A stretch of DNA of 64,000 nt from a virus (Duplodnaviria > Caudoviricetes), in the IMG/VR virus record IMGVR_UViG_3300029288_000101, positions 32,001-96,000 of that record; one strand, given 5' to 3'. Position 1 is the first letter of the stretch. Every line of letters starts with the position of its first letter. The notes beneath the pieces were generated by a model, which was given only the letters and a program-made list of their open reading frames with translations, did no database searches and had not been told where the DNA came from. Positions 4,365 through 60,232 of the stretch are shown here, piece by piece. Position numbers and translations under genes: made by a program.

Positions 4365-5987
4365 TTAATCTTCTTTATTCAAATTATTTAAAAATAATTG
4401 AAGACTTTTTTCAATTGGATTAGTTTCCTCTTCTTCAGGAACAAGAATAGGATTTTGTTCTTCCATTGATTCTTGTCCTTCTTCGCCACCGCCTTGCTGT
4501 TCTTGCATTTGATTCTGTTTCTCCATTTGCAATGCATTTGTATAGACCCCGTCTAACAAAATATCTCCTCCCTGCAAATCTTTTAAACCATGAGATCTTC
4601 TCACCTCATTAACAGTTTTAGATACTTTTGATAATTTAGTATCTAAATCTACTTCTTCTTGAGGAGTTAATCCTGTTAGTCCTTCAAAACTAAATTCATA
4701 TTTTCCTTTATAAAATTGAGAAACCAAAAACTTATTTAATCTCTTTTGTAAAAATTTCAATATTGGAATTAAACCTTTATCTCTACTCCATTTCAATCTC
4801 GCTTCATTGTTACCTTCAAACAAAGACTTCTGACCACTGTTACCACCTTGAGAAAAATTGACTTCTGATGGATCCATGGCGAAAACTGCACACGCTAAAG
4901 TCAACAAATATTGTTGATATTTATTATATTCCATCTCACGATTTGACTTTTGCAAATCTACCCATTCTGCTTTATCTGCTTCTAATATTGGAGTTTTATG
5001 AGCATTATAAACGCCACGCATTTGAGAGTTCCACATTTGTTTGAATTCTTGAACCTTACTTTCGTTCAACATTCCTGAAACTCTTAAAATCCCTTTTGGT
5101 GCACTGCCTTGTTTGAAAAATCTCCTATTATATTCATCTCCCCATAACATAGCTGTTACAGTTGCTGTTAGTTCTTCCAACTCACTTACACCATAACCAT
5201 TTAAATAAATACTTGTGTCTGGGTTTCTTACACCAAAACACATTTCCCAAGGATAAAATTCTGCTTTTACTTGTTGTTGATATACTTGAACATAATTAGG
5301 ATAATAACCTTTTATTTTCTTTCTATTAGAAGTTTGGCCTGCTTGATAATTATCATCATCATAACTATCTGCTATGCGCATCGTTGAACTATCTACTGCA
5401 TAAAATTCACACGGCACACCTTTCCTGTTATGAATAACCTCAAAACACATCTGGTCGTATGTCAATGAATCTCTTATTATTTTTCTAACAAAACCATCAA
5501 AATCATCAGCTTCCCAGCTCTGACCGTCACCACAATTCTCAAGAAACTTAATTATCTCTTCTACTTCTTTTCGTTCTTCTTTTGTTAATTCTTCATTTTG
5601 ATCTTCTCCTTCAAAATTCTTCTTTTTCTTTATTTTATAGCCTATGCCAAATCTATCTGATTGTGGTTCTGCAAATGAAGCTATTTGGTTAATTCTTGTT
5701 CTAATTATTGCATTTATTATTGGCGTTTTCGCCATACTCTTTAGCATATTATAGCTTAATGCTGTTGGTTTATCTTTAAAGCCAAAAGAAGCATTAAATG
5801 CTTGAGGGTCAAAAAGAAAAGATTTGCGATCTCCAGTTTCTCTTGTCTGTATCTGATTTAAAACTTGAGAAGCTTTAATGATATCTGAAGGATTATCTCC
5901 AGTCATCATACCTTCTAAAAGTTTAAATTTTTTTACTTCAAGAATTTGTTGAGCTTTCTCAATTTTTGTTAAAGTTGCAGAAGACAT
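4365..5987 (-). CDS. portal protein
   Basis: RDSLTYDQ, GYGVSELE, RFFKQGSAPKGIL, GLIPILKFL, KTVNEVRR motifs as in SPO1/Twort-like portals. Confidence 0.92.
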   Translation of the reverse strand: MSSATLTKIEKAQQILEVKKFKLLEGMMTGDNPSDIIKASQVLNQIQTRETGDRKSFLFDPQAFNASFGFKDKPTALSYNMLKSMAKTPIINAIIRTRINQIASFAEPQSDRFGIGYKIKKKKNFEGEDQNEELTKEERKEVEEIIKFLENCGDGQSWEADDFDGFVRKIIRDSLTYDQMCFEVIHNRKGVPCEFYAVDSSTMRIADSYDDDNYQAGQTSNRKKIKGYYPNYVQVYQQQVKAEFYPWEMCFGVRNPDTSIYLNGYGVSELEELTATVTAMLWGDEYNRRFFKQGSAPKGILRVSGMLNESKVQEFKQMWNSQMRGVYNAHKTPILEADKAEWVDLQKSNREMEYNKYQQYLLTLACAVFAMDPSEVNFSQGGNSGQKSLFEGNNEARLKWSRDKGLIPILKFLQKRLNKFLVSQFYKGKYEFSFEGLTGLTPQEEVDLDTKLSKVSKTVNEVRRSHGLKDLQGGDILLDGVYTNALQMEKQNQMQEQQGGGEEGQESMEEQNPILVPEEEETNPIEKSLQLFLNNLNKED

Positions 5988-6028: not shown

Positions 6029-7021
6029 TTAAACAACCTGAGTTTTTGGCGTAAATTTTTGACGTTGTTTACCAACCTTAAATTTCATTTTCATATATTT
6101 CTGAAACTCACAAAGGCTATGCTCAATTTCTCGCAGTGTCAATCTCTTATATTTATTTTGAAGATAAGGAAAATCTTCAAAACCAAACAGCTTTAAATAG
6201 CTTTCTTGCTCATCTCTTAAATGATAAATAACTTCTTTTGCATCTTCATAGTTACCTCTGTTAGGAAATATCCAACGCACACCTGTTACAGCACCTGGAC
6301 CAACGTTAACAAAATCATTCTGATTAAAACCAACTATCTCAGGGGAGAAATAATCAAAATCACAATACAGTTCATAAGTTATAAAATCATATAAAAAAGG
6401 TACTTTTTTTAAAACATCGATTAATTCCTTTGGCTTCTCTGATTCTAAAATTCTTTTTACAATTTGATTTTCTTTAATAAATTGGAAACTCCTAACAAAC
6501 AGTTTCAAAACTTCCTTTTTAAAATTATCGCCTTTTGGATAAAATCCTAAACTCTTCCCAATATACATAGTCACTGGAGAAGGTATAAATTGATAAGCAT
6601 TGCAAAAAGGCTTTTCAATTTTCATACAAACTTCTACTATCTTATTTAAATCAGTGTTCTTTAATCTGCATAAAGGTTCTATCTTATCATAAGTTTCTGT
6701 TCTATTAAAAAATCTAAAGATGATACAACCAAAAATTTTATTTTTAGTACTCAATTCCTCATTTCTAATTACTGTATTAATTAAATATTGGCTGTTTCTG
6801 TCTAATTCACGATAGGCATTTGTAAATTTATTATCTCTTAAAATTGAGTCTTTTGACCACGGAGCAGGGAGCTTCTTAATAAACCTTCTACAATATATAG
6901 AATGACGCTCATAAATCCAATACCAAAATGTTCTTAAATTTTCCTCGCAGACATCTAATTCTGCATCAGGCATAAATTTTAATACATTTGGTTGTAATTT
7001 AACTGTCTTTTTAGCTTTCAT
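6029..7021 (-). CDS. aGPT-Pplase1 / amino acid:DNA transferase family (thymine hypermodification)
   Basis: FWYWIYERHSIY...PWSKDSILRDNKFTNAYRELDR, VNVGPGA, REIEHSLCEFQKY signatures. Confidence 0.85.
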   Translation of the reverse strand: MKAKKTVKLQPNVLKFMPDAELDVCEENLRTFWYWIYERHSIYCRRFIKKLPAPWSKDSILRDNKFTNAYRELDRNSQYLINTVIRNEELSTKNKIFGCIIFRFFNRTETYDKIEPLCRLKNTDLNKIVEVCMKIEKPFCNAYQFIPSPVTMYIGKSLGFYPKGDNFKKEVLKLFVRSFQFIKENQIVKRILESEKPKELIDVLKKVPFLYDFITYELYCDFDYFSPEIVGFNQNDFVNVGPGAVTGVRWIFPNRGNYEDAKEVIYHLRDEQESYLKLFGFEDFPYLQNKYKRLTLREIEHSLCEFQKYMKMKFKVGKQRQKFTPKTQVV

Positions 7022-7026
7022 CTATT

Positions 7027-7995
7027 TTACAACAATTCTTTAAATTCTTTTGATGTTAACTTCAACAACTTTTTATCAATCTTCTCACTACCGAAAGTTA
7101 TTTTTGGAACTACATGAGTATAAAACCCTGGATGACCATTACATTCACGACAAAGAGCAAGTTTACTTCTACCAGCGTTCTGTAAATGTAACCGATAAAA
7201 ATTAATCAAATCACTGTTCCAAATATCTATTATGTTTTCTTTCAACACATTACCTAATTTTATTTTACTAAAAAAGTCATTGCAACAAATCAACATATTC
7301 CCTTTCCAATCTATAATTGGTCTTCTAAAAGGAAAAACGCAAATTTTATTTTGATTGCCAGGTTTCATTCCTGCTAATTTGCCGTTCAAAGCACCACCAT
7401 TATTTTCTAATAAATTATAAATCTGACTCTTTTTAGTTGAAAACACAGAGCAGTTTCCAGCTGTAAGATATTTGGTCTTATCAATAAGATCTACTACCTT
7501 TTTATCTTTACCAACTTTTGTGTACACCTCTCCTCCAAGAATTAATCCTCCAATATAAGTTTTAATCTCATACAACCATTCTGCAATCTTTATCACTCTG
7601 TTTCTATCTGAATAGACATTTATTTCCATTTGATTCAAACCAGCTTCAAATAAAATTCTAATATCTTTATCACTCTTAAATAAATCTCCATTCGTATTAA
7701 ACATAATACAAACATTTGGAAGTTTCTTTCGTATATATTTTATCTTTTCAATTAAATTCTTATCTAACAGTGGTTCATTATAAGAGTTCAATTCTATTCT
7801 TCCTTTATAATTCAACTCTTTTAATTGTTTTATTATTTGACTAAAAACTTCATCAGTCATAAATTCTTTTGGCTTTTCATAATAACCAAAACCACAAAAC
7901 TCACACTTCCTGTTACAAAAAGAAGTTGTTTGAATCAAAATTGTATTAAATTGAGGAACTTCTTCCTCTTTCCTTACATTTACTACCTTTTGCAT
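7027..7995 (-). CDS. radical SAM protein with SPASM/twitch domain
   Basis: CNRKCEFC (CxxxCxxC); NEPLL; C-terminal CVFPF...ICCND...LGNV...IW...CREC. Confidence 0.9.
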   Translation of the reverse strand: MQKVVNVRKEEEVPQFNTILIQTTSFCNRKCEFCGFGYYEKPKEFMTDEVFSQIIKQLKELNYKGRIELNSYNEPLLDKNLIEKIKYIRKKLPNVCIMFNTNGDLFKSDKDIRILFEAGLNQMEINVYSDRNRVIKIAEWLYEIKTYIGGLILGGEVYTKVGKDKKVVDLIDKTKYLTAGNCSVFSTKKSQIYNLLENNGGALNGKLAGMKPGNQNKICVFPFRRPIIDWKGNMLICCNDFFSKIKLGNVLKENIIDIWNSDLINFYRLHLQNAGRSKLALCRECNGHPGFYTHVVPKITFGSEKIDKKLLKLTSKEFKELL

Positions 7996-8001
7996 ATTGT
8001 T

Positions 8002-9417
8002 TTATCTTTTAAATGAAAAATTTCGTTTATCACCAATACCGTACCAAGTCCTTGATGCTTTCTCAATAAACTTTTTATCAGCTTTACCTGTTTCATATTT
8101 CTTATACCAGCCTGTTGGTTTACCTTCTATTACATCTATATATTGCTTACAAACATAATCAACATCAAAGTGTTTTAATAATTTATAATTATTCTGTACA
8201 ATTTTATTATATTTCTTCTCAGACATCGCTAAACCACTTAACATCTTATCTGCAAATTGTTTGGGAGTAGCGTCATAAGGAATCATTAAATAATTTTCAT
8301 CAGGTTTGAATATATCCCCAATACCTTCTTCATTATTACTTAAACCAAGATTTCTACTTATTGGTACAATACCATTCATTATCGCTTCAATTAATACTCT
8401 TGAAAAATGTTCACCATATTCCTTACTGATTGTGTAATAAGCTGTATCTATGAAAAAAGAAGAACTTTTAAAGCAAACATCTCGCTCTTCAGCAGACATC
8501 CAAAACAAAATAAATGTATTACATTTTTTAGCCAATTTTAAAATATACCGACCATAATATCTCTTATTAATATCAGGATCTATTTCTGGATTGACTAAAT
8601 ATTGCTTCTTTACCTTTGTCTTAGACATCATATAATAATATTCCAATCCCTTACCACCTATCAAAAACTCTGTTTCAGGATTTTCAAAATAAACATGAGG
8701 TATAGCTCTAATTAAATCATCAACGTGTTTTGATGCTTTCCAATTTTGTAAAGAGAAAAAAGTAGGCTTCTTTGCAATTGTATGAAAATTACTCTTTGAA
8801 TAATCTACTCCATCTAATATTTGAGGATTAAATATCATACAACGAGGAGTGTCAAAAACACCACAGGCATTATAAGAGGCTGGATGAACAGTGATAATTC
8901 TATCAAAATAAGGCATTATAAAGTATAGCCAAGAAGAATTTGCTCTTATATTCCCATCATGATGAAAAGCAATATTAACAGGATGCTTTAAATCCAAAAG
9001 CATTGGCCAAGTTGTATCTTTTTGGTAATCTTCTTGTTTGAACCAAAAAGGTGTATGCCAAAATACTGCGTCATAGCTCTCTAATTTTTCTTTAAATTGC
9101 TGTTTTTGTTTTAATGTTCCTAATGGAGTTGTAGGCACAAACCAACCAAAATGATTATGAAAATATTCCCCTGTCCCTATTCCTTTATCTAATAAATAAA
9201 CTCTTTGTTTTTCTATTTCAAGTTCTCCGTTCAAATATTCTTGAAGTTTCTTGATTACAAGCTTCTCGTTTGATTCTGCTTTACTTCCGATAAAATAAAA
9301 ATCCACTTCATGTCCTAATCTTTTTAGACCATAAATGGAATGTTCAACATGCTGCATAAATCCTCCATAAATAGAGGAACCTCTATGCATAATATAAGCA
9401 ATTTTATATTTTCTCAT
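8002..9417 (-). CDS. GT-B fold glycosyltransferase (GT4-like)
   Basis: KHVDDLIRA, GEHFSRVLIEAIMNGIVP (EX7E-like). Confidence 0.75.
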   Translation of the reverse strand: MRKYKIAYIMHRGSSIYGGFMQHVEHSIYGLKRLGHEVDFYFIGSKAESNEKLVIKKLQEYLNGELEIEKQRVYLLDKGIGTGEYFHNHFGWFVPTTPLGTLKQKQQFKEKLESYDAVFWHTPFWFKQEDYQKDTTWPMLLDLKHPVNIAFHHDGNIRANSSWLYFIMPYFDRIITVHPASYNACGVFDTPRCMIFNPQILDGVDYSKSNFHTIAKKPTFFSLQNWKASKHVDDLIRAIPHVYFENPETEFLIGGKGLEYYYMMSKTKVKKQYLVNPEIDPDINKRYYGRYILKLAKKCNTFILFWMSAEERDVCFKSSSFFIDTAYYTISKEYGEHFSRVLIEAIMNGIVPISRNLGLSNNEEGIGDIFKPDENYLMIPYDATPKQFADKMLSGLAMSEKKYNKIVQNNYKLLKHFDVDYVCKQYIDVIEGKPTGWYKKYETGKADKKFIEKASRTWYGIGDKRNFSFKR

Positions 9418-9856
9418 CCTCGAATAACTTTCTTAACCTTTCTCGTAAATCTGTTGAAGAAAAATGATGTCTTCTTGAATTATAATAATTCTCTATTCCT
9501 TCAATGTTTTTCCCTGTATGTTCTTTATCTTTATACTCTTCCCCAATGATTCTAATATCAGGTAAAAGCACTAACAACATATCAACCAAATCTTCTTCAG
9601 ACTCAAAAGGAATTATATAATCAACACATTCAATAGCCTGTAATTGAAGAAATCTTTCAAACAAAGATTGAATAGGTTTGTTCTTTTTCTTTCTACTAAT
9701 CGTAGGATCCGAAAGGATACCGACAATCAAAAAATCACACTTTGATTTTGCTTCAGCAAGCATAGCAACATGTCCAGCGTGTAAAAGGTCAAACGTGCTG
9801 CATGTAAATCCAATTTTCTTCCCTTCTGCTCTCAGTTTATAAATTTTATTTAACAT
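9404..9856 (-). CDS. cytidylyltransferase (TagD/RfaE-II family)
   Basis: FDLLHAGH (HxGH), R..H.FSSTDLR. Confidence 0.9.
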   Translation of the reverse strand: MLNKIYKLRAEGKKIGFTCSTFDLLHAGHVAMLAEAKSKCDFLIVGILSDPTISRKKKNKPIQSLFERFLQLQAIECVDYIIPFESEEDLVDMLLVLLPDIRIIGEEYKDKEHTGKNIEGIENYYNSRRHHFSSTDLRERLRKLFEDEKI

Positions 9857-10887
9857 ATCATCTTCATTTTTAATCTTACTATTTCCTTAAATTTTGATTT
9901 TAATTCAAAATTTTTTAAATATTTAATAACTCTTATCCACTGAGTGAGTTCTAATAAATCTAAATAACGCTCCTCGATTTGATATTCCTTAATAAAACAT
10001 TTTTTGAAATAATGGTAATGACTCATGTTATCATCTCTCTCAAAAGAATATAATAACTTTGAAATGTCTAAAAGATAAGAACTGTAACTATCAGGATTGT
10101 ATATCGGATCTATTAAATAAAGTTGACCTTCTTTTATCTCTCTAATCAAATTATCCACTGAAAAATCACCATGACAAAAACTTCTTCTTTCATTATAATA
10201 ATCTTCTTTCAAACGTAAAGCATCTAATACTTTAAAAAAATCTTTGTTCGCTTCGCAATGATTTTTCATCCTCTCAATATAACTTGAAAAACTAATTTCG
10301 CTTGGTATTGACTTGAAAGAATTTATTATTTGAAATAGCTCTTCTTTCCTTAAGAACAAAAAATCTTTTGATTGAATATATTGCAAACAAATAGTTTCAC
10401 CTACTACACTATAAACTTCTGGAGTATAAACTAATCCTCTAATTTTTTGATACCAAGAAGCTTCTGACAGGCTATTCTTTGAATTTTTATAAACTTTATT
10501 CCCTCTCCTTTCGACAGCAGCCCCACTTCCTTCTTTTTTTGTTAAATCTTCTATTTCTAATTGCAAAAATCCTTCTGGTGTGAGAGATTTATCATCAACA
10601 TAATAAGCAGCCAAAATCTTATTAAAAGATAATTGATGATATTTGACACCATATTTAGCGAGCCAATTTTCAATTTGAGTTTGATACTTCTGTTTTGCTC
10701 TTTCTCTATCACCTTCGCAAGAAATAAAACCACGAGCAGTCATTATTATTACTTCCCATCCTGAATGATATAGCTTGTTGATTTTCTCTATTATCAACAA
10801 ATTTGGTTCTGCGTTCTCAAAATCTCTATTCGTTGTTTTAGAAATCGTATCATCCAAGTCAAAAACAATTCTTTTATAATATCTCAT
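9850..10887 (-). CDS. HAD phosphatase (EcbF/BcbF-like) fused to APH/choline-kinase-like domain
   Basis: N-terminal DLDDT, TARG, YYVDDK; C-terminal CHGDFSVDN...YLIDP. Confidence 0.8.
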   Translation of the reverse strand: MRYYKRIVFDLDDTISKTTNRDFENAEPNLLIIEKINKLYHSGWEVIIMTARGFISCEGDRERAKQKYQTQIENWLAKYGVKYHQLSFNKILAAYYVDDKSLTPEGFLQLEIEDLTKKEGSGAAVERRGNKVYKNSKNSLSEASWYQKIRGLVYTPEVYSVVGETICLQYIQSKDFLFLRKEELFQIINSFKSIPSEISFSSYIERMKNHCEANKDFFKVLDALRLKEDYYNERRSFCHGDFSVDNLIREIKEGQLYLIDPIYNPDSYSSYLLDISKLLYSFERDDNMSHYHYFKKCFIKEYQIEERYLDLLELTQWIRVIKYLKNFELKSKFKEIVRLKMKMIC

Positions 10888-10915
10888 AAATTTAATTATT
10901 TTACCTCATTAACTT

Positions 10916-10941
10916 TGAAAAGAGGCTTTCGCCTCTCTTCA
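10916..10941 (-). terminator. intrinsic terminator/attenuator hairpin
   Basis: GAAGAGAGGC-GAAA-GCCTCTTTTC on - strand. Confidence 0.65.
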
Positions 10942-10945
10942 AATA

Positions 10946-11041
10946 GGTTTTTATCAACTCCCTCCGTATTGAGAGATGCAGAGCCACTTTGCAATTTAAC
11001 CTCATCCTTGTGGCAGAATAAGATTATTCAGATAAAAAACC
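10946..11041 (-). ncRNA. candidate structured RNA A (multi-way junction)
   Basis: Closing helix GGTTTTTTATC/GATAAAAACC; inner GAATA/TATTC, GCCAC/GTGGC, TCTCTC/GAGGGA; sits between a promoter and a terminator. Confidence 0.55.
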
Positions 11042-11051
11042 ATTTTCTTAA

Positions 11052-11083
11052 CAAATATAACAATCTTCGGAAATATAAGGCAA
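11052..11083 (-). promoter_or_regulatory. Bacteroidota-type primary sigma promoter
   Basis: TTG-N21-TATATTTG matches the -33/-7 consensus. Confidence 0.6.
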
Positions 11084-11140
11084 GCAAAAATGCTGCAATT
11101 TTCATTCTATTATCAAGTTTTATTCAGATCTTGTTTTTAG

Positions 11141-11263
11141 AATATAGTCTTTTTAGTATACATTATTAGACCTTTCTTTATAGCGGCAACACCTACAATG
11201 ATATTTAACCGCTTTGTAATTTCCACTGAAATTTTCGCGTCTTAAAAGAAAGACTGCTATATT
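11141..11263 (-). ncRNA. candidate structured RNA B, 3' of the tRNA
   Basis: AATATAG..GTCTT/AAGACTATATT closing stem; CTTTCTTT/AAAGAAAG; AATTTC/GAAATT; AGCGG/CCGCT. Confidence 0.45.
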
Positions 11264-11284
11264 TATTCAAAGAACTTTTATTTT

Positions 11285-11359
11285 TGGAGAAGTAGTAAGG
11301 TTCGAACTTACATCTATGCCTTTAGAAGGGGATCGCTTTAACTTTAAGCTACACTTCTC
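11285..11359 (-). tRNA. atypical tRNA with 8-nt anticodon loop (Arg-TCT-like or amber CTA-like)
   Basis: Acceptor AGAAGTG/TACTTCT, D arm GCTT/AAGC, T arm GTAAG-TTCGAAC-CTTAC; anticodon arm ATCCC-CTTCTAAA-GGCAT. Confidence 0.75.
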
Positions 11360-11384
11360 GCCAATCTGGAGGAACCAGAATGAA

Positions 11385-11591
11385 TTAATAACCTTTTTTT
11401 GCTATTCCTTCTTTAATAGCAGCCAAAGCATTTTCTTTCGACAGTATTTGAACCATTTTACTGCCACCTTTTGCTACTCCCTTAACCATATAACCACCAC
11501 GAGCAGTTTTTACGATTGTAGGTGTTCCTTCAAAAGGAACTTTCTTTTTCAATTTTACATTGTAGGCTGTTAAGCCTTCTGATTTTGCCAT
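11385..11591 (-). CDS. small basic protein, DUF5679-like without cysteines (possible nucleic-acid binder)
   Basis: AYNVKLKKK...KTARGGYMVKG...GSKMVQIL parallels the DUF5679 pattern. Confidence 0.45.
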   Translation of the reverse strand: MAKSEGLTAYNVKLKKKVPFEGTPTIVKTARGGYMVKGVAKGGSKMVQILSKENALAAIKEGIAKKGY

Positions 11592-11922: not shown

Positions 11923-13290
11923 TTATTTAATTTTATTTATATTATCTGCAGTGTTTTTATCAAAACGAATTTCAACGAGACGAGGCAAAAACAAACTCTT
12001 CTTACCAAACTTATCTTCAATTTTTGAATTGTATTTGACTGAGATTATCTTTCCTATAAAATAATTAGGGTTCTTTGCAATTTCAGTTAATTGTTTATCT
12101 GAAAAGCCTGAGCCAACTTCAACACTTAATAATTTATCAGCACTTTCACAAACAAAGCCACCAATAGTTGCTTCTCGTTTCGTTCCGGATTTTCCAGGAA
12201 ACACACTAACAACTTTTAAATCGCAAACTTTTTCTTCCTTCATCTTAATCCAGGATTTACTTCGCTTAGTTTCATATAAATGGTCTCCTAATTTTAAAAT
12301 TAAGCCTTCTCCACCTTCAGCAACCACCTTACCATAAATCTTTTCCACATCTCCCCAATTCTTCACAGGATATTTGCGTACATATTTTATTTGTGACCAA
12401 TCCTGCTCCCACGATTTCGCTACCTGAAACAAATTGCCTAATAACTTCTTTCTTAAAATGTATTTTAGTTTTCCAACACCATCAGCTACAGTTTGCATTT
12501 TATCATAATCAAAAACATGATAAACAAAATTCTTATCAATTTCTTTCGGTGCAGTTCCTTTTAATATTTTTGTAATTAACCCTGATACTGACTGTCTGTT
12601 TTTCCCTAACATTTCGCCATCAATAAAATAATGGAAATTATTTAAAGGAAATATCATACGAAGTTGTTTGGCTATGTTTTGCATACAATCCATATTTAAC
12701 TCCTGAAAGTTATAAGTATAAAAATGCTCAATTTTCCCTCTCACCATTTCACACCAAATTCTTACACCATCAAACTTCTCCTCAGCAAAAACAGATTTTC
12801 CTTCTTCTAACCATTTCTTAACTACCTCTTTGTTATCTTCTGCCTTCATCATTTCATTATTTGGAATAAGGTTAAAACCCAATGCCTCATTTATAATAGC
12901 TCTTCCAATTCCTATGTTCACATTCTTTGTAAAGATTTTTGCAAGCATTCGCTTTTCCTCCTCTAACAAATCAGTCATTTCAATAAAAATATAAACTTCT
13001 TTTCGAATTTCATCAGTGGCAGCTTTTAAGGAAATAAGCTTCTCTAAAAGTTCTCTAAAATTTTCAAAAGTTTTACACCCACCTTCTGGTCTATCCTCAT
13101 AATCTTCCTCACCTATCCTTTCAACTTTATTTATATGAGTGACAATAAGCGGGTCAAAGCAAAGTTTTAAAACATACCTCAATTCTAAACAATCATTTTC
13201 CCTTATTAATCTTTGTTTTTCTTTTTGAGAGCCTTCTCCAGTAACACTTTCTAACTGAATAAGTAATTGTACAATAGCTTTTAATTCCAT
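11923..13290 (-). CDS. lig: ATP-dependent DNA ligase
   Basis: EEKFDGVR, IDGEM, FD, EGLILK, WIKMK, VGSGFSD, LFLPR motifs. Confidence 0.95.
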   Translation of the reverse strand: MELKAIVQLLIQLESVTGEGSQKEKQRLIRENDCLELRYVLKLCFDPLIVTHINKVERIGEEDYEDRPEGGCKTFENFRELLEKLISLKAATDEIRKEVYIFIEMTDLLEEEKRMLAKIFTKNVNIGIGRAIINEALGFNLIPNNEMMKAEDNKEVVKKWLEEGKSVFAEEKFDGVRIWCEMVRGKIEHFYTYNFQELNMDCMQNIAKQLRMIFPLNNFHYFIDGEMLGKNRQSVSGLITKILKGTAPKEIDKNFVYHVFDYDKMQTVADGVGKLKYILRKKLLGNLFQVAKSWEQDWSQIKYVRKYPVKNWGDVEKIYGKVVAEGGEGLILKLGDHLYETKRSKSWIKMKEEKVCDLKVVSVFPGKSGTKREATIGGFVCESADKLLSVEVGSGFSDKQLTEIAKNPNYFIGKIISVKYNSKIEDKFGKKSLFLPRLVEIRFDKNTADNINKIK

Positions 13291-13307
13291 TTTTAGTTCC
13301 TCCTGTT

Positions 13308-13847
13308 TTAATTAATTGTTTTTATTTTATCTGTTAATTCAATTACATAACCTTTTAAAGACTCAGGACAATATCTAACAAAAACTTTGTTTTCTTCCCA
13401 ATCTTTAAAATTTATTTCTTTAAACCATTTTTTAATACTATTTGGAATAGAAGAAATCTTCAAACCTCGATTTACTGCCATTGCAATACGACTCAAACAA
13501 TGCCATGCCATTCTTCTATCCCATTCTTCTATCCCACCCATTTTCAGTAATACCATCTGCTTACGAGCAAACAAATCACAAGCAAACTCCTGTTCAAATC
13601 TTTTACCCACGTTCCCATCTAAAATATGTTTTACTTCGTGCATACAAACAGCAAACCTATCAGCATTGGTTGGGTGTGGTATTTGAATTTCCTTCTTCTT
13701 ACAATTAGCTCGTCCTGAAGAGGTAGTACGATATTTTACCACTTTTATTTTATAGCATTTCAGCAAAGTTTTCAAATGCTTCTCTGCTGCCAACTTATCA
13801 AATACTATTACTTCTTTTCTTTTTGTTTTCATTTTAAATTCCTCCAT
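13308..13847 (-). CDS. zincin-like metallopeptidase (true start probably 13833)
   Basis: HEVKH (HExxH) plus downstream EQEFAC. Confidence 0.6.
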   Translation of the reverse strand: MEEFKMKTKRKEVIVFDKLAAEKHLKTLLKCYKIKVVKYRTTSSGRANCKKKEIQIPHPTNADRFAVCMHEVKHILDGNVGKRFEQEFACDLFARKQMVLLKMGGIEEWDRRMAWHCLSRIAMAVNRGLKISSIPNSIKKWFKEINFKDWEENKVFVRYCPESLKGYVIELTDKIKTIN

Positions 13848-13852
13848 TTCAA

Positions 13853-14263
13853 TTAAACAAAAAATTTAAAATCAACTATTTTACCGTCTCTCGTAATACC
13901 TTTATAATAATTACCTGAAGGATTTATACGAGTAGTATCAAAACGAATTTTTTCATTATTTAAAGCATTAAATATTTTCCCTGCTAAGATCCTTTTATTC
14001 TTATGCTCTGTTTTTAAAATTGCTATTGAATGGATTATCAAAGCTGTCTCAGAAGTTATTGTATTATCAAGACCTGTTTGATACATATTCTGAAAGGAAA
14101 TCTCTTCGAATAATTTATTAAAAACAGGATTCTCACATAATTTATTTACAAGCCTATTGGCATTAAAAATTTTAACTTTATAGAAATTTTTATAAGTTTC
14201 AAATTCTTCTTCTTTTTTCTTAAAATCTTCATCAAATCTTGATGTATCAATTTTTGTTTTCAT
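13853..14263 (-). CDS. hypothetical protein
   Basis: ORF with strong SD. Confidence 0.7.
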   Translation of the reverse strand: MKTKIDTSRFDEDFKKKEEEFETYKNFYKVKIFNANRLVNKLCENPVFNKLFEEISFQNMYQTGLDNTITSETALIIHSIAILKTEHKNKRILAGKIFNALNNEKIRFDTTRINPSGNYYKGITRDGKIVDFKFFV

Positions 14264-14297
14264 TTTTTTTGGTTCCTCCTTATTAAATTAATATTCT

Positions 14298-14591
14298 TTA
14301 ATCACCATTCCATATTGTTAATTGTTGAGTTATCATTTCAATATTATTATTTAGCCAGTCTTTTGCATCTTGTACTGATTCTGATTCATGCTTTAAAGTA
14401 ATCCATCTCCATTTACAATTTTTATTCCCGTCTTCCAAAATATCCTTCTTTAAAACTTGTAATCTTATTTTAAAAGGTTTACGGCAATCAATATTTCCGC
14501 ATTCTTTTTTATTTAGTTTAATAATAATATCGTCATTGGAGAATGCTCTCCACTGACCTTTTGCTTTTTCTGTTTTAAATGTAAATTTCAT
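14298..14591 (-). CDS. hypothetical protein (start revised to ATG 14591)
   Basis: AGGAGGAAC SD upstream of MKFTFKTEK. Confidence 0.65.
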   Translation of the reverse strand: MKFTFKTEKAKGQWRAFSNDDIIIKLNKKECGNIDCRKPFKIRLQVLKKDILEDGNKNCKWRWITLKHESESVQDAKDWLNNNIEMITQQLTIWNGD

Positions 14592-14817: not shown

Positions 14818-15579
14818 TTATTTTTCAAAATGACTCTTCTCTGGGAATAAACTGCTAATCACACTCTTTAAATCTTCTGTTAAGCCCTTATCATTATAGC
14901 CTGCAACTTTTTTATTTAATAATTCTAATTTAATATCTTCTATATTGTTAAAGGGCTGCTCGAAATTAGCTTTAAATCCTTCAGGCACTTTCTTTCTCTT
15001 TTCGGCAACATTATTAAAATACAAAGTATTTATTGTAAATCCTGCTCTTTCCACTCCCCATTCATACTGGTTCATCACCCACTCAAAATCTTTCTTATTA
15101 TATAATGCTGGTAGATGAGAATCATAATGGTAGATTGGCTTTCCTTGTAATATTAAAACTTCAAAAGTTCTTTTCAATCGAGTCCTCCAACGATTCATAA
15201 ATGCCCAATTAATTTCACTCAAATCTCTAATATACATTGGAGAAAAATCTGATGCCACACAAGGTTGTAAAAGCAATTGATCGTCGCTCATCCTGACAAA
15301 GTTCTGAGTGAGCTGTTCTCTCTTGCAAGCTAATAAAACCTTTTGAATCAAATTAGCATCTTTATTAGCTTTAAAAGTATCTTCAGCTGGTATATGGATT
15401 ACATTTTGAATAAAGTTTGGAAGATAGCCAACAATATAGACTTCTCTTAAATCTAAAAAATTTTTCTCTAAACTCCTCAAACAATATCTAATTTCATTAT
15501 CATTCCACCCAGCTTTAATTCCTAATGGTATAACAACATCTATCTTCTTATTAATACTAAAATCTATTTCAGGACACAT
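14818..15579 (-). CDS. Stealth-like (CpsY/SacB) sugar-phosphotransferase
   Basis: IDVVIP...NEIRYCLRSLEKN...FVRMSDD. Confidence 0.7.
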   Translation of the reverse strand: MCPEIDFSINKKIDVVIPLGIKAGWNDNEIRYCLRSLEKNFLDLREVYIVGYLPNFIQNVIHIPAEDTFKANKDANLIQKVLLACKREQLTQNFVRMSDDQLLLQPCVASDFSPMYIRDLSEINWAFMNRWRTRLKRTFEVLILQGKPIYHYDSHLPALYNKKDFEWVMNQYEWGVERAGFTINTLYFNNVAEKRKKVPEGFKANFEQPFNNIEDIKLELLNKKVAGYNDKGLTEDLKSVISSLFPEKSHFEK

Positions 15580-15631
15580 TATATTTCTTATTTTGATTAT
15601 TGAAAAACAAAGAACAGATTTTATTAAGGAT

Positions 15632-16183
15632 TTATTTTAAATGTTGTTTTGATTTTCTTCCCCCTTCTAGCAATCTATAATAGTGAAAAACGTAAATCCC
15701 TTCCATTAACAAAATCTTTTTGCCTATGGCTAATACTTTTCTAGAAAAATTATTATCTATTGTTAGTATTCCCTGTTCTAGAAAGCCTCCCACTCTCTGC
15801 CAGGTTTTCTTTTGAATTACCATCAGAAATCCGCTTATTGAACGAGGAATTTCTTTTACTTCAAGATACTTCTCTTTTTGTAATTTTAAAGCTAAATCTA
15901 TATGATATTTCCAATCTTGATTTTCTGAAATGACTCCATTATATCGTTGCCATGGATTTCCCACTCTATTACAATAACAAGTAAAAATTCCAGTATCAGG
16001 ATACATTTTTATAATATCTTCTATTTGTTTTCCATAATCAGAAGTTAAGAACATTATATCACGATCTGTTAGTACTCCATAATCTGTGTCTTGAGGCAAT
16101 AGTTGCATATATTCATTATATGCTTTTCCTACATTACCATTTAAATCATAAGGTATAAAATAATATGTCATAATTTTTCTCAA
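15632..16183 (-). CDS. GT2-like glycosyltransferase
   Basis: GKAYN, TDRD, SGFLMVIQKKTWQRVGGF, D..FS, GIYVFH. Confidence 0.7.
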   Translation of the reverse strand: MRKIMTYYFIPYDLNGNVGKAYNEYMQLLPQDTDYGVLTDRDIMFLTSDYGKQIEDIIKMYPDTGIFTCYCNRVGNPWQRYNGVISENQDWKYHIDLALKLQKEKYLEVKEIPRSISGFLMVIQKKTWQRVGGFLEQGILTIDNNFSRKVLAIGKKILLMEGIYVFHYYRLLEGGRKSKQHLK

Positions 16184-16189
16184 GTTTAT

Positions 16190-16274
16190 TTAATTTTCTC
16201 TTCTCCCAACCTCTTTTTGCTGCCTCACTCTTTTTTTCTTTTTGTTTCTTCAGAATCTTCTCTTCATTTGTCAT
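16190..16274 (-). pseudogene. NUMOD3-like homing endonuclease remnant
   Basis: Encodes SEETKRK / KSEAAKRGWEKRK in offset frames. Confidence 0.35.
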
Positions 16275-16312
16275 TTTTATTATGTTATTACTAAATTAGT
16301 ACTAACAACACA

Positions 16313-17050
16313 TCATTTCATTGACTTTAATCTCTCCACTATATCATCGGGGAGAAACAATTGAATTTTTAAATCTGTTTCAACAAAAGGAAACACAATA
16401 TCGCTGAAAAATTTGCTTCTCTTTTTTGAAATATTATTAAAACCATGAGTATCTACTCCATATAACCAATCGTCAGTTTCATTAATAAATACTCTTTTTG
16501 GATCTATATTTTTTACTAACCAGCCATCTACTTTTGCTCTAACAGCTTCAAAAGAAAGTTTTCTAACATCTTCAGTTTTAGCACCCATATTCAAACCACC
16601 TCTTTGAATATTTTTTTTATCTGAAAATAAAATGTGTTGTTGTTTTTGAATCCAATAAAACAAGCCTTGATTCGCTTTATACCAATCATTTCCTAAATTT
16701 ATTGCTTCCATTGTTGTTCTCAACCTATTAGGTTCTGAATAGCAATCAGCTGCTTGAAATACAAAAGCAACAGAATTTACGTCTGCTCGCTGTCCTAATA
16801 ATCTCCATTTTTGGCTTAATGGAACCCAACAAGGCAAAGAAATATACAATATTCTTCTACAACCTATTTGTTTTAATCTTTCAAAATAAGAATCAAAAAA
16901 TTCCTTACCACAACTATTATCATCAGATTCTTCCACCACTATTATTTCCCAGCCAAAATCAATTCCTTTTTGCCTGCAAAGTCCTTCCATTGCCAGCCAA
17001 GCAATATTTTTACTATTAAACACTGGCAGACCAACTGTTAATTTTATCAT
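16313..17050 (-). CDS. GT-A fold glycosyltransferase-like protein
   Basis: LTVGLPVFNS...WEIIVVEE...AADCYS. Confidence 0.65.
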   Translation of the reverse strand: MIKLTVGLPVFNSKNIAWLAMEGLCRQKGIDFGWEIIVVEESDDNSCGKEFFDSYFERLKQIGCRRILYISLPCWVPLSQKWRLLGQRADVNSVAFVFQAADCYSEPNRLRTTMEAINLGNDWYKANQGLFYWIQKQQHILFSDKKNIQRGGLNMGAKTEDVRKLSFEAVRAKVDGWLVKNIDPKRVFINETDDWLYGVDTHGFNNISKKRSKFFSDIVFPFVETDLKIQLFLPDDIVERLKSMK

Positions 17051-17733
17051 CGTTTGAAATTATTTAAAAATTCTATTTTTACCTCTTCAAATCCCACTGA
17101 CTTCTTAAAGGTTCTTAATCCTGGTAAACAAGCCTTTAAAGTTAGATAATTTAAACACTTTACTTGCTTATAATTCTCTATGCAATCTTTAATTATAAAG
17201 TTAATTAAAAGATTCATTATACCAAACTTTAAATGTTCTGCGTGTCCTAAGATTTGATTAATTATTGCAAATTCATTCATAAAATTCACATTACACCAGG
17301 CTACTAATTTATCTTCTTTTAACACTCCAAAATATTTTATTTTATGAACATCGCAACAATTCAGAGTTCTCGCCTCTTCAGGATATTTTTGATATTTTGC
17401 TGACATTCTTTTACCTTGTCTAAATTCTTTTGAATTGTTAATTTCAAAAATATCTTCTAAAAATAAATTATAAGAAATCTCTCTTGCCTCATAATTATTC
17501 TTCTGAGATTTAACAATCATATTTCTACTTTTACAACCTATTTGTTTTAAATAGGCTTCATAAGTTTTAGAAATTATAATTACTGCTGGTAGATATTTAT
17601 GACTGATAATTTCTTCACTAATTAATACTTCTCCAAAAGGTCTATTGGATTTTATCCAATTTTCCCAAATAAAGAATAACTCTTCACAACCTTTTTGACA
17701 TCCTTCTGCGCTTCCAATTAAATCAATTTTCAT
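17047..17733 (-). CDS. GNAT/FemAB-like acyltransferase
   Basis: SRNMIVKS..NYE, YFGVLKEDKLVA, ILGHAEHLKFGIM, GLRTFKKSVGF. Confidence 0.6.
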   Translation of the reverse strand: MKIDLIGSAEGCQKGCEELFFIWENWIKSNRPFGEVLISEEIISHKYLPAVIIISKTYEAYLKQIGCKSRNMIVKSQKNNYEAREISYNLFLEDIFEINNSKEFRQGKRMSAKYQKYPEEARTLNCCDVHKIKYFGVLKEDKLVAWCNVNFMNEFAIINQILGHAEHLKFGIMNLLINFIIKDCIENYKQVKCLNYLTLKACLPGLRTFKKSVGFEEVKIEFLNNFKR

Positions 17734-18470
17734 AAATCTAAATACTCCTTGTAAGTCATAAAGACCACGCCTAAATTTTTAAAATGAGCAATAAACTTGT
17801 CATAATAAAAACCTGACAACTCTCCTATATTTAAACCTTCTGGTACATAAGGATTATATAAGGTTGGAATGAATTTCTTATAAAACTAAGTGTTATGAGT
17901 TAACATTGCTAAAGTTTGCTGTTCTTCTAATTTCTTTGTAAAAGCTCTTAAAAATCTATTAAAACCAACAAAACCATCTGTCTTTAAATAACCATCTAAA
18001 GTTAAATGGAAAGGTGTCAAGATCGACTTGAATTTATAATCTTCTGGTTTCATAACTACCATATCGCTACAAATATAATTCAAGCCTAATGAATCTTGAA
18101 CCAAATAGCCTAACGATTTATTCCATTTAAAATTACCACCACAAGCAGAAACTCCTAAAATATTTAAATCTAAAGACCTTACTTTTTTCAATTCTTGTAG
18201 AGGTGAAGGCAATTCTTTTGAATTAACATGATTTGCAAGATGTAAACCAAATTCCCAACCATTGTTCTCTAAAGTCTTATAAAAGTTTTGATATTTCAAT
18301 TCAGAAACTCCCCTGTCATATCTTAAGAATATTGTCGATCTAACTTCATGTTTCCTCTCAATACTAAACATCCTATCAACATTAAGATTTAGACCATGAA
18401 CCCAATCAAAATCATGTCTTAAAATAATAATCTTCTTTTCCTTAAATACTAAAGATTTAACAGTTTCCAT
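17730..18470 (-). pseudogene. polysaccharide deacetylase-like gene with in-frame TAG at 17886..17888
   Basis: LRHDFD, WEFGLH, THN; frame continues 51 codons past TAG (FYKKF...GVVFMTYKEYLDL) to an ATGA overlap with the next gene. Confidence 0.75.
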
Positions 18471-19320
18471 TGGTTATAACCTTTGACAAACACCATGCTG
18501 AATATGCTCTTACTCTAAAATTAGTGTGCTGAAGAGAGGTCAAAATCTCTTTGTCTAAAATCAACATTCTTTTATTTAATTTTTCTTCTCCTAAAATCGT
18601 TAAAAGCTCATTTTTATAAAGATTATAAATTAAAAAAGTTATAGGTATAGACCAGCCTATTGAGCCAGAAGATAGCCATTTCTCTTTATCTGAAAAATTT
18701 ATTAAACTTTTTAAAACTATTTCTTTTTTATAAATCAAAAATTTCAATCTATAAAAATGATAAAGCATTAAGCCTAAATGAAAGCTATCTTCCAATTTCA
18801 TTTTTTCCCATTTCTCTTCTTTAAAATATTGATAAGACCAATTACCATTTTCTTGGCTTGATTCTAATAAATTTACTAATTTTTTAGCTCTATCTAATTC
18901 TCCACACTCATTAAAAACCAAAGCCGCTGCTGATGTTACATTTGGAACAGCATAATTTGTTTCTTCACTACAATATTTTTGCCAACCATTTTCATAGCTA
19001 CCTATAGATTTTATATCTTCAAAAATCTTATCTGTTAGGTATTTAAATCTTAATTGTTTAAAAAACTCATAGCAAATCCATAAAGTATAAGTGTATAAAT
19101 TATTTTCTGAACAACGAGCCACATTAACTCTGTTTCTCTTATTTAAAATAAGATTTCTTTCCAATACTTTTATCAAACAATCATGATAATCTAATCCAAA
19201 TATTTGCTTTGCACTTCCTAATAAAGCAAAGCCATCGGCAGAAGATTTTTCAAAAAAAATATCTGTTTCAGGAAACCTTACTTCAGATATTAATTTCTTA
19301 ATATCAGATAAAATAATCAT
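18457..19320 (-). CDS. (alpha/alpha)-toroid carbohydrate-active-like protein
   Basis: VPNVTSAAA, QENGNWSY, EDSFH motifs; glycan cluster context. Confidence 0.45.
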   Translation of the reverse strand: MIILSDIKKLISEVRFPETDIFFEKSSADGFALLGSAKQIFGLDYHDCLIKVLERNLILNKRNRVNVARCSENNLYTYTLWICYEFFKQLRFKYLTDKIFEDIKSIGSYENGWQKYCSEETNYAVPNVTSAAALVFNECGELDRAKKLVNLLESSQENGNWSYQYFKEEKWEKMKLEDSFHLGLMLYHFYRLKFLIYKKEIVLKSLINFSDKEKWLSSGSIGWSIPITFLIYNLYKNELLTILGEEKLNKRMLILDKEILTSLQHTNFRVRAYSAWCLSKVITNGNC

Positions 19321-19898
19321 CTTACAATGCTATCAATTAAAAATAACTTATTATTATTTTTTGAACTCAAAGAAAACTCTTCAATATTTACAAATTTTAG
19401 CTTCTTATATCTTTTTCTAATTTGAAGCTTATTTTCAAAAAGCCTAACATGGCTCTCATTTTTAAAATTAGGTACTGAAAATATAAATCTAACATTAGAA
19501 GGCAACAATTTTATTACTTCCAAATCTTCTTCTAAATGTTCCAATACCTCGCAACAAATAATAGTCTCAAAAGGCAAATATTGTGCCTCTACACTATATA
19601 TATCTTTTACCTCAAAAGCACAATTAGAAGCAAAAGCAGAATTTAATTGTTTTGCTTTCTCAATAGCAACCTCACTAAAATCTATACCTTTTATATAATT
19701 CTTCTCCTCTCTTAAAAGATAATTTGCTAATTGACCAACACCACAACCTATTTCTAGAATACTTTCCTTTTTTGTTAATATCTCTCCAATCCTCTTCCAA
19801 ATAGGAAAATATATTGTTTGTTCTGGCTGTTTAAAATACATTCCTTTTGAACCGCCCTTCAAATAAATCTCGTCATAAAATTCTCTATTTTTTTCCAT
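19317..19898 (-). CDS. class I SAM-dependent methyltransferase
   Basis: ILEIGCGVG, GIDFS, EVLEHL, SVPN. Confidence 0.9.
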   Translation of the reverse strand: MEKNREFYDEIYLKGGSKGMYFKQPEQTIYFPIWKRIGEILTKKESILEIGCGVGQLANYLLREEKNYIKGIDFSEVAIEKAKQLNSAFASNCAFEVKDIYSVEAQYLPFETIICCEVLEHLEEDLEVIKLLPSNVRFIFSVPNFKNESHVRLFENKLQIRKRYKKLKFVNIEEFSLSSKNNNKLFLIDSIVR

Positions 19899-19901
19899 AT
19901 T

Positions 19902-21441: not shown

Positions 21442-21442
21442 T

Positions 21443-60215: not shown

Positions 60216-60232
60216 AATTAGCTTTAACTAAT

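Follow-up and report, generated by a model that had tools for sequence, protein, structure and literature searches.

Every phage thymidine hypermodification pathway solved so far proceeds through a DNA kinase and a transferase of clade 2 (PMC5889632, PMC8989533, PMC11472151, PMC13458397). The transferase chemistry that has been demonstrated, with putrescine, glutamate, glycine or serine, belongs to this clade 2 (PF18724); no activity has been demonstrated for clade 1, whose member gp55 of phage M6 was dispensable in vitro (PMC8989533). Thymidines bearing sugars or polyols are known chemically from the cultured phages SP-15 (dihydroxypentyluracil with glucose and phosphoglucuronate), YerA41, Carin-5 and the Pbunaviruses F8 and 14-1, whose genes are unsolved (PMC5977210, PMC12686479, PMC12191111), and RP13 is suspected of such a thymidine (PMC13697223). 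A metavirome survey reported contigs with glycosyltransferase and ThyS genes together with APH phosphotransferases, which were read mainly as cytosine pathways and not tied to PF18723 (bioRxiv 2023.12.21.572611). Here, we analyzed a 64,000-nucleotide stretch of viral DNA (the window), which comprises bases 32001-96000 of a 109,727-bp IMG/VR contig (IMGVR_UViG_3300029288_000101; CheckV completeness 100%), and in particular a five-gene operon at 6029-10887 that ends in a clade 1 gene. With moderate confidence, we propose that this operon directs a kinase-free, sugar-type, post-replicative modification of 5-hydroxymethyl-2'-deoxyuridine (hmdU) in the phage DNA, possibly yielding a keto-sugar or cyclitol adduct.

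The phage comes from a landfill metagenome, and groundwater metagenomes from a separate study contain identical pieces of all five operon genes (short-sided joints in the sequencing-run matches were treated as noise). The matching sequences are all contigs, with no RNA data set listed among them. The window has a GC content of ~29%, and almost all of its genes lie on the minus strand. The operon consists of five minus-strand open reading frames (ORFs), given below in the order of transcription:

9850-10887, minus strand: fusion of a HAD phosphatase and an APH-like kinase, 345 aa
9404-9856, minus strand: cytidylyltransferase-like nucleotidyltransferase (CTase), 150 aa, PF01467
8002-9417, minus strand: GT4-type GT-B glycosyltransferase (GT), 471 aa, PF00534
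7027-7995, minus strand: BtrN-family radical SAM enzyme (rSAM) with a twitch/SPASM domain, 322 aa, PF04055 and PF13186
6029-7021, minus strand: Pplase1, that is, aGPT-Pplase clade 1 or HMUDK_hel, 330 aa, PF18723

Successive ORFs overlap by 7 and 14 nt or are separated by gaps of 5-6 nt, a spacing that indicates translational coupling, and the operon is flanked by an ATP-dependent DNA ligase gene (11923-13290) and a portal gene (4365-5987). An initial annotation of the window had already described a tightly coupled operon with these domains; the ORFs were found at exactly those coordinates, and the domain calls hold. No match to the operon was found among cultured phages by megablast.

Three genes outside the operon bear on the supply of hmdU:

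61888-63063, minus strand: dUMP hydroxymethylase-type thymidylate synthase (TS) homologue, PF00303
48821-49477, minus strand: HD-domain YfbR-like 5'-deoxynucleotidase, PF12917
38329-38754, minus strand: dUTPase, supplying dUMP, PF00692

The TS homologue scored 81 bits on PF00303 but fell far under the cut-off of every NCBIfam ThyA model. It is 39% identical to M6 gp58, 42% to the YungSlug enzyme, 41% to that of SP-10 and 35% to SPO1 gp29, and when compared with 50,697 phage records it proved most similar to the dUMP hydroxymethylases of 5-hydroxymethyluracil (hmU) phages. It carries RSNDVHWGLPTN, with Asn at the position of ThyA N177, which specifies uracil. Since it groups with proven or accepted dUMP hydroxymethylases, we infer that it is the source of hmdUMP; the suggestion of a likely hmdU synthase at 61888 is thus borne out by profile score, hydroxymethylase identity and the Asn residue. 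The HD protein (50.3 bits on PF12917), whose orthologue follows the TS gene in the related loci L006, L009, L013 and L015, is a candidate for the exclusion of dTMP/dTTP, by analogy with other hmdU phages. The dUTPase scored 65 bits on PF00692 and is 46% identical to its L006 homologue.

The known machinery for phosphorylating hmdU in DNA is absent. Neither hmdU DNA kinase family, PF18748 (HMUDK_HMUD1) or PF18747 (HMUD2), gave a match at E <= 1 in the complete 109,727-bp genome, and the positive controls of the search were detected (M6, three of the four IMG/VR loci, making four of the five known positives, and RP13); the initial observation that no such kinase is visible in the window therefore holds for the whole genome. 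The clade 2 amino acid:DNA transferase (PF18724, ADDT) likewise returned nothing in the complete genome, in which no ADDT or TAGT remnant is left. A Walker A scan of the genome revealed no small P-loop kinase, jackhmmer gave no hit either, and no genome homologue was found for M6 gp53, a radical SAM enzyme, or M6 gp52, a pyridoxal-phosphate enzyme. The only kinase candidate found in the genome is the APH-like kinase of the operon. Of the canonical kinase-dependent thymidine system, then, the hydroxymethylase is present and the 5-hmdU DNA kinase is not.

In its place stands a glycosyltransferase. The GT matched PF00534 (Glycos_transf_1) with 44.1 bits against a cut-off of 26.4, and its AlphaFold2 (AF2) model (pLDDT 90.9) shows two Rossmann domains in a GT-B arrangement, with a retaining-type GT4 fold. 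The best Foldseek matches were BshA, PimA and MshA (E 1e-13 to 1e-12, probability 1.00, TM 0.55-0.72). The DNA-bound T4 alpha-glucosyltransferase (AGT; 1y6f) was matched at E 5.5e-11 with equal TM and was also a language-model look-alike, while the T4 AGT family profile (PF11440) gave no match to the GT at E <= 10. Since T4 AGT is one among many equal structural matches, structure does not decide the acceptor. The family is small, with 38 proteins at E <= 1e-3 among 5.8 billion, and tblastn found no match to it in the 50,697 cultured-phage records. What connects it to hmdU is its gene context, described below, and a natural fusion: in L049 (8453-10966), a single 838-aa ORF consists of a GT4 domain 50% identical to the window GT, a Lys/Glu/Pro-rich linker and Pplase1. 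On these grounds, the GT is predicted to transfer a sugar to hmdU in DNA.

All-against-all comparison of related loci identified six conserved families, namely Pplase1, CTase, GT, TS, HAD/kinase and HD. The GT4 module recurs in L013, L006, L009, L015 and L011 and in six IMG/VR contigs. Its order is HAD/kinase-CTase-GT-Pplase1-TS-HD in L013 and the same, plus a 169-aa insert, in L006; L009 has TS-HD-...-GT-HAD/kinase-CTase-296aa-Pplase1, and the L011/L022 lineage has Pplase1-GT-TS with the CTase 4 kb off. The accessory ORFs of these related modules (169, 149, 296, 299, 132, 141 and 148 aa) matched no Pfam family. The absence of the canonical genes is also shared. Across five other GT4-module genomes, one of them 100% complete with direct terminal repeats, PF18748 and PF18724 were absent from all five and PF18747 from the four tested, and an independent jackhmmer census agrees on the absence of kinase and clade 2 transferase. 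A 187-aa P-loop protein of L009 was considered as an hmdU kinase and rejected, being deoxynucleoside kinase-like and not a member of PF18748.

In addition, 80 IMG/VR Pplase1 loci were sampled and their partners recorded within +-10 kb (L034, for which the ORF set contained no Pplase1, was left uncounted). A kinase and/or clade 2 transferase was present in 17 loci, a SPASM-type rSAM as the only partner in 15, TAGT in 5, the full GT4 module in 6, a GT4-like gene alone or with rSAM in 5, and a HAD/kinase-profile match only in 2, one of which is L038; the other 29 had no such partner. In most of the sampled loci, a TS homologue is encoded no more than 10 kb from Pplase1. Several of the loci scored as rSAM only carry TAGT, GT61, a CTP_transf-mannose-6-P-isomerase fusion or a member of an unnamed family (A7) that has a match to the GT4 profile (hhalign E 2e-5) but none among PDB sequences. 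The initial annotation had stated that its proposal would fail if homologous GT, CTase and rSAM genes did not co-occur with Pplase1. The GT lies within a few kilobases of PF18723, CTP_transf_like, TS homologue and HD genes in seven of the eight contexts looked up, and close rSAM homologues co-occur as well, but homologues of the CTase are also found in unrelated-looking contexts.

The first two genes of the operon are best read as a donor-synthesis pair. Residues ~1-118 of the fusion form a HAD-IIIA-type domain with a DxDxT motif (PDB 1xpj profile, E 1.6e-26; TIGR01689, E 7e-18, under cut-off). Residues ~120-345 form the kinase domain, in which the HGDFSxxN and LIDP motifs are conserved across the family alignment (A1). 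Its structural look-alikes in the ESM Atlas are viral APH-like proteins, including ~616-aa fusions to NTP_transferase, that is, sugar-1-P nucleotidyltransferases; MtnK is a weak profile match, and in L015 kinase and HAD are separate adjacent genes. APH-fold kinases such as NahK, AmgK and MtnK phosphorylate anomeric hydroxyls in salvage routes, including AmgK/MurU. The fusion is a predicted anomeric sugar (or polyol) kinase and phosphatase. The CTase matched PF01467 (CTP_transf_like) with 56.6 bits against a cut-off of 21, has invariant HxGH (LLHAGH) and C-terminal RxHxFSS motifs, and is 52-64% identical across all GT4-module lineages. Its PDB matches were ECT (3elb, E 1e-15), HldC (5x9q, E 4e-14) and TagD (1coz, E 3e-11), and it remained under the equivalog cut-offs of TIGR02199 rfaE_dom_II (90.4 vs 181.5 bits, E 9e-26) and TIGR01518 (55.7 vs 165.4 bits). 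It is predicted to be an enzyme of the HldE domain II/TagD/ECT type that makes an NDP-activated donor. The same three activities, kinase, HAD-IIIA phosphatase and HldE-II-like nucleotidyltransferase, make up the ADP-heptose pathway (HldE kinase, GmhB and HldE adenylyltransferase) and are found here in one operon. Unlike in that pathway, however, the kinase has the APH rather than the PfkB fold, no GmhA isomerase was seen, and the NCBIfam scores lie far under the equivalog cut-offs.

A replacement of enzymes elsewhere points in the same direction. L038 (3302-10128) has the order Pplase1-329 aa-TAGT-APH-like kinase-HAD-NTP_transf_3-sulfotransferase-like (weak match)-TS-HD. Since TAGT there takes the place of the GT, and NTP_transf_3 that of the CTase, by non-orthologous replacement, this locus suggests that kinase, phosphatase and nucleotidyltransferase together build a donor, which the glycosyltransferase spends. 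That the kinase/phosphatase and nucleotidyltransferase make a sugar or polyol donor for the GT, as first proposed for this window, remains the best reading.

We then consider Pplase1. The window protein matched PF18723 with 207 bits against a cut-off of 25 (E 5e-61, profile positions 3-277 of 281), and a Pfam scan at E <= 0.01 returned this family only, not PF18724. Pfam now names PF18723 'HMUDK_hel, 5-hmdU DNA kinase helical domain' (formerly aGPT-Pplase clade 1) and PF18724 'ADDT' (formerly aGPT-Pplase clade 2). Despite the name, the protein is a homologue of M6 gp55 (24% identical) and not of the kinase gp54, and it lacks a Walker A motif. Pplase1 ORFs of 564-615 aa in L026, L029, L044 and L039 are natural fusions to a P-loop or thymidylate-kinase-like domain, and such P-loop kinase-Pplase1 fusions probably explain the Pfam name; the fusion gene of L039 is directly followed by a SPASM rSAM gene. 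The family comprises 3,200 clusters at 50% identity (E <= 1e-3). Residues R39, N68, D74, F213, G243, C304, E305 and K308 are invariant in 92 diverse relatives, and the LCExxKY motif (IEHSLC304E305) aligns with the catalytic Cys region of M6 gp51 (VETVLC). The AF2 model (pLDDT 92.5) has a helix-hairpin-helix DNA-glycosylase-like fold. Its best PDB match is the PaMx11 gp46 5-PmdU glycinyltransferase (8z2n_B; Foldseek probability 0.95, VIA Z 10.7, root-mean-square deviation 3.6 A over 211 residues), followed by the queuosine-nucleotide hydrolase DUF2419/QNG1 (Z 10.4) and helix-hairpin-helix glycosylases (Z 7-9); these Z scores lie under the tool's caution line for helical proteins, and sequence profiles also link clades 1 and 2. 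By phmmer, PDB sequences gave chance matches only. On the basis of this model, Pplase1 may be described as a glycosylase-shaped module that engages hmdU and in which Cys304 and Glu305 are probably catalytic.

The same residues bear on a different mechanism, in which hmdU in DNA would be phosphorylated by the APH-like kinase, or in a variant phosphorylated and afterwards cytidylylated, Cys304 of Pplase1 would attack C6, expel the leaving group and take up the sugar or polyol, and the GT would extend the product. This substitution, akin to that of the amino acid:DNA transferases, draws on the alignment of the Cys motif with M6 gp51, on the structural match to the PaMx11 transferase and on several invariant Arg and Lys residues that could hold a phosphate. 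It would also give a role to the only kinase candidate in the genome, and in other loci P-loop hmdU kinases are frequently encoded next to Pplase1 or in one ORF with it; for PhiW-14, a report of a pyrophosphorylated hmU intermediate is cited in PMC5977210. We nevertheless regard it as unlikely. The kinase is fused to a phosphatase, always accompanied by a nucleotidyltransferase and of a fold that is elsewhere fused to sugar-1-P nucleotidyltransferases, which is the signature of donor synthesis rather than of a DNA kinase, and it is missing beside Pplase1-GT in the L011/L022 lineage. Moreover, the initial annotation had taken the transferase chemistry as known for aGPT-Pplase/amino acid:DNA transferases and had proposed that Pplase1 displaces a phosphate; that chemistry belongs to clade 2, and neither the record on clade 1 nor that on M6 gp55 provides such an activity (PMC8989533). 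Since all characterised transferases are clade 2, the phosphate-displacement step is unsupported, and with no DNA kinase in the genome there is no visible source of phosphorylated hmdU.

The near tie between DUF2419/QNG1, an enzyme of free nucleotides, and the PaMx11 transferase (Z 10.4 vs 10.7) also raises the question of a pre-replicative route as in SP-15, where dihydroxypentyluracil is made as the triphosphate (references in PMC5977210). Here the sugar or polyol would be put on hmdUMP or hmdUTP and then polymerised, and Pplase1 would act on the mononucleotide. The GT4 enzyme resembles T4 AGT as much as it does small-molecule glycosyltransferases and so does not discriminate. The invariant GPG hairpin of Pplase1, however, is typical of DNA-binding helix-hairpin-helix proteins, and its sequence kinship is with clade 2 enzymes, which act on DNA, so that we consider this route very improbable. 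We therefore return to the reading in which the GT glycosylates hmdU within DNA.

The fourth gene of the operon would add an oxidation to this scheme. The rSAM protein matched PF04055 (58.9 vs 29.5 bits) and PF13186 (SPASM; 44.1 vs 21.5 bits), and its CxxxCxxC motif (C27, C31, C34) and C237, C238, C282 and C285 are invariant. In phmmer searches of PDB sequences, it matched BtrN over residues 16-126 and again over residues 195-306 (4m7s_A, E 1e-24), and the family profile (A6) did so at E 4.5e-57. By these alignments, it is a homologue of BtrN over both domains, the radical SAM core and the auxiliary-cluster domain, and what had initially been offered as an analogy with BtrN is real homology. 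It differs from BtrN, the 2-deoxy-scyllo-inosamine dehydrogenase of butirosin synthesis (PDB 4m7s/4m7t), in an insertion of ~65 residues (roughly 127-194) and in its DNA-modification context. The parallel once drawn with the radical SAM enzyme of phage M6 does not stand, since that isomerase, gp53, is unrelated to this rSAM. Homology to BtrN suggests that the group oxidised is a secondary alcohol, carried by a sugar or cyclitol, and we predict that the enzyme is an anaerobic alcohol-to-ketone dehydrogenase with such a substrate.

Comparison with two further loci revealed that the operon has a composite origin. Close rSAM homologues (50-57% identical) lie between TAGT and Pplase1 in L017 and L018, and the synteny extends from the ligase (59% identity) through a 67-aa gene (60%), rSAM (49%) and Pplase1 (50%) to the portal (68%). 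In the same slot before the portal, L017 (5114-9895) has HMUDK-like-ADDT-TAGT-rSAM-Pplase1, and the short contig L018 (743-4922) has the same ADDT-TAGT-rSAM-Pplase1 run; judged by its genes, this set, another undescribed one, brings glycosylation and radical oxidation together with the transfer of an amino acid. The three upstream genes of the window operon thus replace a kinase/transferase/TAGT set, whereas rSAM and Pplase1 are resident. Conversely, L013 has the closest relatives of the GT (62%), no rSAM, and a Pplase1 just 30% identical to that of the window. As read from this synteny, the operon is a mobile HAD/kinase-CTase-GT4 cassette joined to a resident rSAM-Pplase1 pair, not a single five-gene unit conserved as a whole. 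In a maximum-likelihood tree of 86 Pplase1 sequences, module types are interleaved, GT4-module members require at least four independent placements, and some of their Pplase1s are sisters of kinase-adjacent ones. Pplase1 thus follows the phage lineage, while the partner enzymes are swapped around it.

The ~500 bp upstream of the operon (10888-11387) contain no minus-strand ORF of >=50 aa. They lie at the left boundary of the exchanged cassette, right after the conserved 68-aa gene at 11385-11591, and may hold a promoter or a recombination scar; promoter and terminator scans gave nothing usefully above background.

Because rSAM and Pplase1 stay paired while the cassette differs between this genome and L017/L018, the locus might instead harbor two chemistries: the resident pair would act on the base, for example by converting hmdU to 5-formyluracil with Pplase1 holding the flipped base, and the GT cassette would glycosylate other hmdU residues. 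In 20 of 89 loci, genes of the rSAM family lie close to Pplase1, and in many of these cases stop and start codons overlap; the BtrN/anSME class oxidises carbinol carbons, in the case of anSME including primary alcohols. The substrate of BtrN, however, is a cyclitol. In addition, wherever checked in other loci, the rSAM gene follows some glycosyltransferase (TAGT, GT61, GT4-like or the A7 family), and its distant homologues sit in bacterial polysaccharide clusters. We judge this division of labor improbable and retain the view that the rSAM acts on the sugar.

Not far from the operon, beside the terminase, lies a glycan-type run of genes at 14818-22006 (Stealth_CR2-like, GNAT, glycosyltransferases and others), which also occurs in L017 with its other cassette and which could serve to decorate the virion or to lengthen the adduct on DNA. 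It could be argued from this run that kinase, HAD, CTase, GT and rSAM make or tailor a virion or host-envelope glycan and that Pplase1 is merely adjacent. The polysaccharide context of the distant rSAM relatives and the wide occurrence of the CTase would agree with this. Homologues of the CTase that are 50-56% identical occur in many cultured phages, including cyanophages, Vibrio phages (L021, phiKT1024) and Acinetobacter phages (L020, Ab1-TPeters), and in Ab1-TPeters a ParB-like gene and a dCTP deaminase are close by. Yet six lineages that differ in gene order have the GT family next to Pplase1 and the hydroxymethylase, L049 has it fused to Pplase1, and the glycan run is equally present in L017, where the cassette is another one. 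A target other than DNA is therefore the least probable of the explanations that we considered, and the locus is well supported as a DNA-modification locus.

Together, these results lead us to the following scheme. Family membership suggests that hmdUMP would be made before replication and that hmdU would enter DNA in place of T. By pathway logic like that of ADP-heptose synthesis, the APH-like kinase would then phosphorylate a sugar or polyol, with the anomeric position as the probable site, a second phosphate would be stripped by the fused HAD domain, and the HldE-II/TagD-like enzyme would make the NDP-donor. Gene context and the natural fusion suggest that the GT4 enzyme would place the sugar on the 5-hydroxymethyl group of hmdU in DNA, partnered by Pplase1, which would engage the flipped-out base. 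Finally, as its homology to BtrN suggests, the rSAM would oxidise the sugar or cyclitol, once attached, at a secondary hydroxyl to give a ketone. Canonical activation by an hmdU DNA kinase and amino-acid transfer would not be used.

Several points weigh against this scheme. The sequences establish which genes and families are present, that the canonical genes are missing, that the linkage is conserved, that a natural fusion exists and that cassettes have been exchanged; from this we infer every chemical step, and likewise what the GT acts on, which sugar it is given and what the rSAM oxidises. The main weakness is that Pplase1 is given no named reaction, although the invariant residues in it, among them Cys, Glu, Asp, Arg and Lys, suggest a catalysis of its own outside the model. 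T4 AGT, T4 beta-glucosyltransferase (BGT) and the base J glucosyltransferase (JGT) glycosylate DNA without a partner, which leaves the need for Pplase1 unexplained, and the identity of only ~30% between the window Pplase1 and that of the cassette-donor lineage speaks against a tight, co-evolved GT-Pplase1 complex. The Pfam matches of the kinase are under cut-off (PF01636, 17.7 vs 23.2 bits; PF01633, 16.4 vs 29 bits), and no kinase or HAD gene is present in the 17 kb seen of the L011 lineage. Members of the CTase family are common in cultured phages, in surroundings that showed no hmdU gene, and the sugar nucleotides could serve another target, given the ten-gene glycan operon 4 kb away.

A broader and more tentative idea, which is possible but on present evidence doubtful, is that Pplase1 is a general, active hmdU-capturing module around which phages swap P-loop kinase, GT4, TAGT and BtrN-type oxidase, giving here a keto-sugar or cyclitol adduct without base phosphorylation. 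If this is true, the base would be a new one, and so would the oxidation of a sugar on DNA by an anaerobic radical reaction.

Two other features of the window were observed. The DnaE-type polymerase III alpha gene (57214-61861) is split into 60233-61861, which encodes PHP and the start of the NTPase domain, and 57214-59277, which encodes the rest (finger and HHH), with a complete GIY-YIG/NUMOD homing-endonuclease gene between the halves (59253-60215); DnaE is unsplit in L007 and L013 (1137-1156 aa) and split in L006 and L008. An RtcB RNA ligase (374 bits; 36003-37196) and a protein with a HAD_SAK_2 domain ('Swiss army knife RNA repair'; 31482-32093) form a possible tRNA-repair counter-defence set.

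How, then, does the locus compare with described systems? With the pathways of M6, PaMx11, ViI, PhiW-14 and SH-Ab 15599, it shares the pre-replicative supply of hmdU by a TS-like hydroxymethylase and an HD nucleotidase. Clade 1 aGPT-Pplase genes are also present in M6 (gp55) and ViI (gp160), and tailoring in M6 includes a radical SAM enzyme. In contrast to these pathways, the phage has no PF18748, PF18747 or PF18724 but an NDP-sugar module and a GT4 enzyme, and no amino acid or polyamine logic is visible. The view that this is an undescribed combination of enzymes for hmdU hypermodification is supported by the comparison.

The predicted core step, glycosylation of a pyrimidine hydroxymethyl group in DNA, is like that of the T4 alpha- and beta-glucosyltransferases, of the 5mYOX/TAGT glycan pathways (PMC8256090, bioRxiv 2023.12.21.572611) and of base J synthesis (JBP and JGT). 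The GT is a retaining-type GT-B enzyme like T4 AGT, and sister cassettes use TAGT, a JGT-like family. However, the base here would be pre-replicative hmdU rather than 5-hydroxymethylcytosine or oxidised T, the donor is apparently made by the phage, and Pplase1 and an rSAM oxidase are added.

The interest of such modified bases lies in restriction and CRISPR evasion, in failed sequencing and in DNA-labelling tools, and Pbunaviruses are relevant to therapy. The Pplase1 family, with its ~3,200 clusters at 50% identity, could gain a function through the present locus, and a radical SAM dehydrogenase could join the enzymes of DNA modification. The adducts to which we liken the product of this locus are those of SP-15, YerA41, Carin-5 and F8/14-1, in which thymidine is partly replaced by sugar, sugar-alcohol or phospho-sugar adducts; TagD-like and glycosyltransferase genes have been discussed for SP-15 and Carin-5. 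The GT family of the window, by comparison, has no homologue in any cultured-phage record. RP13 has a Pplase1 30% identical to that of the window but, unlike this phage, an HMUD2-type kinase. In RP13 (L103), whose DNA is reported to be heavily modified, a myo-inositol-1-phosphate-synthase-like gene and the HMUD2-type kinase gene (13066-14346, 17353-18609) lie within 9 kb of Pplase1, and a weak GT4-like gene and a WbqC gene are also present, so that a cyclitol adduct is conceivable there. The window, for its part, offers a kinase-free gene set, comprising hydroxymethylase, Pplase1, GT4, nucleotidyltransferase, kinase/phosphatase and, optionally, a BtrN-type oxidase, that could explain one of the sugar/polyol thymidine chemistries.

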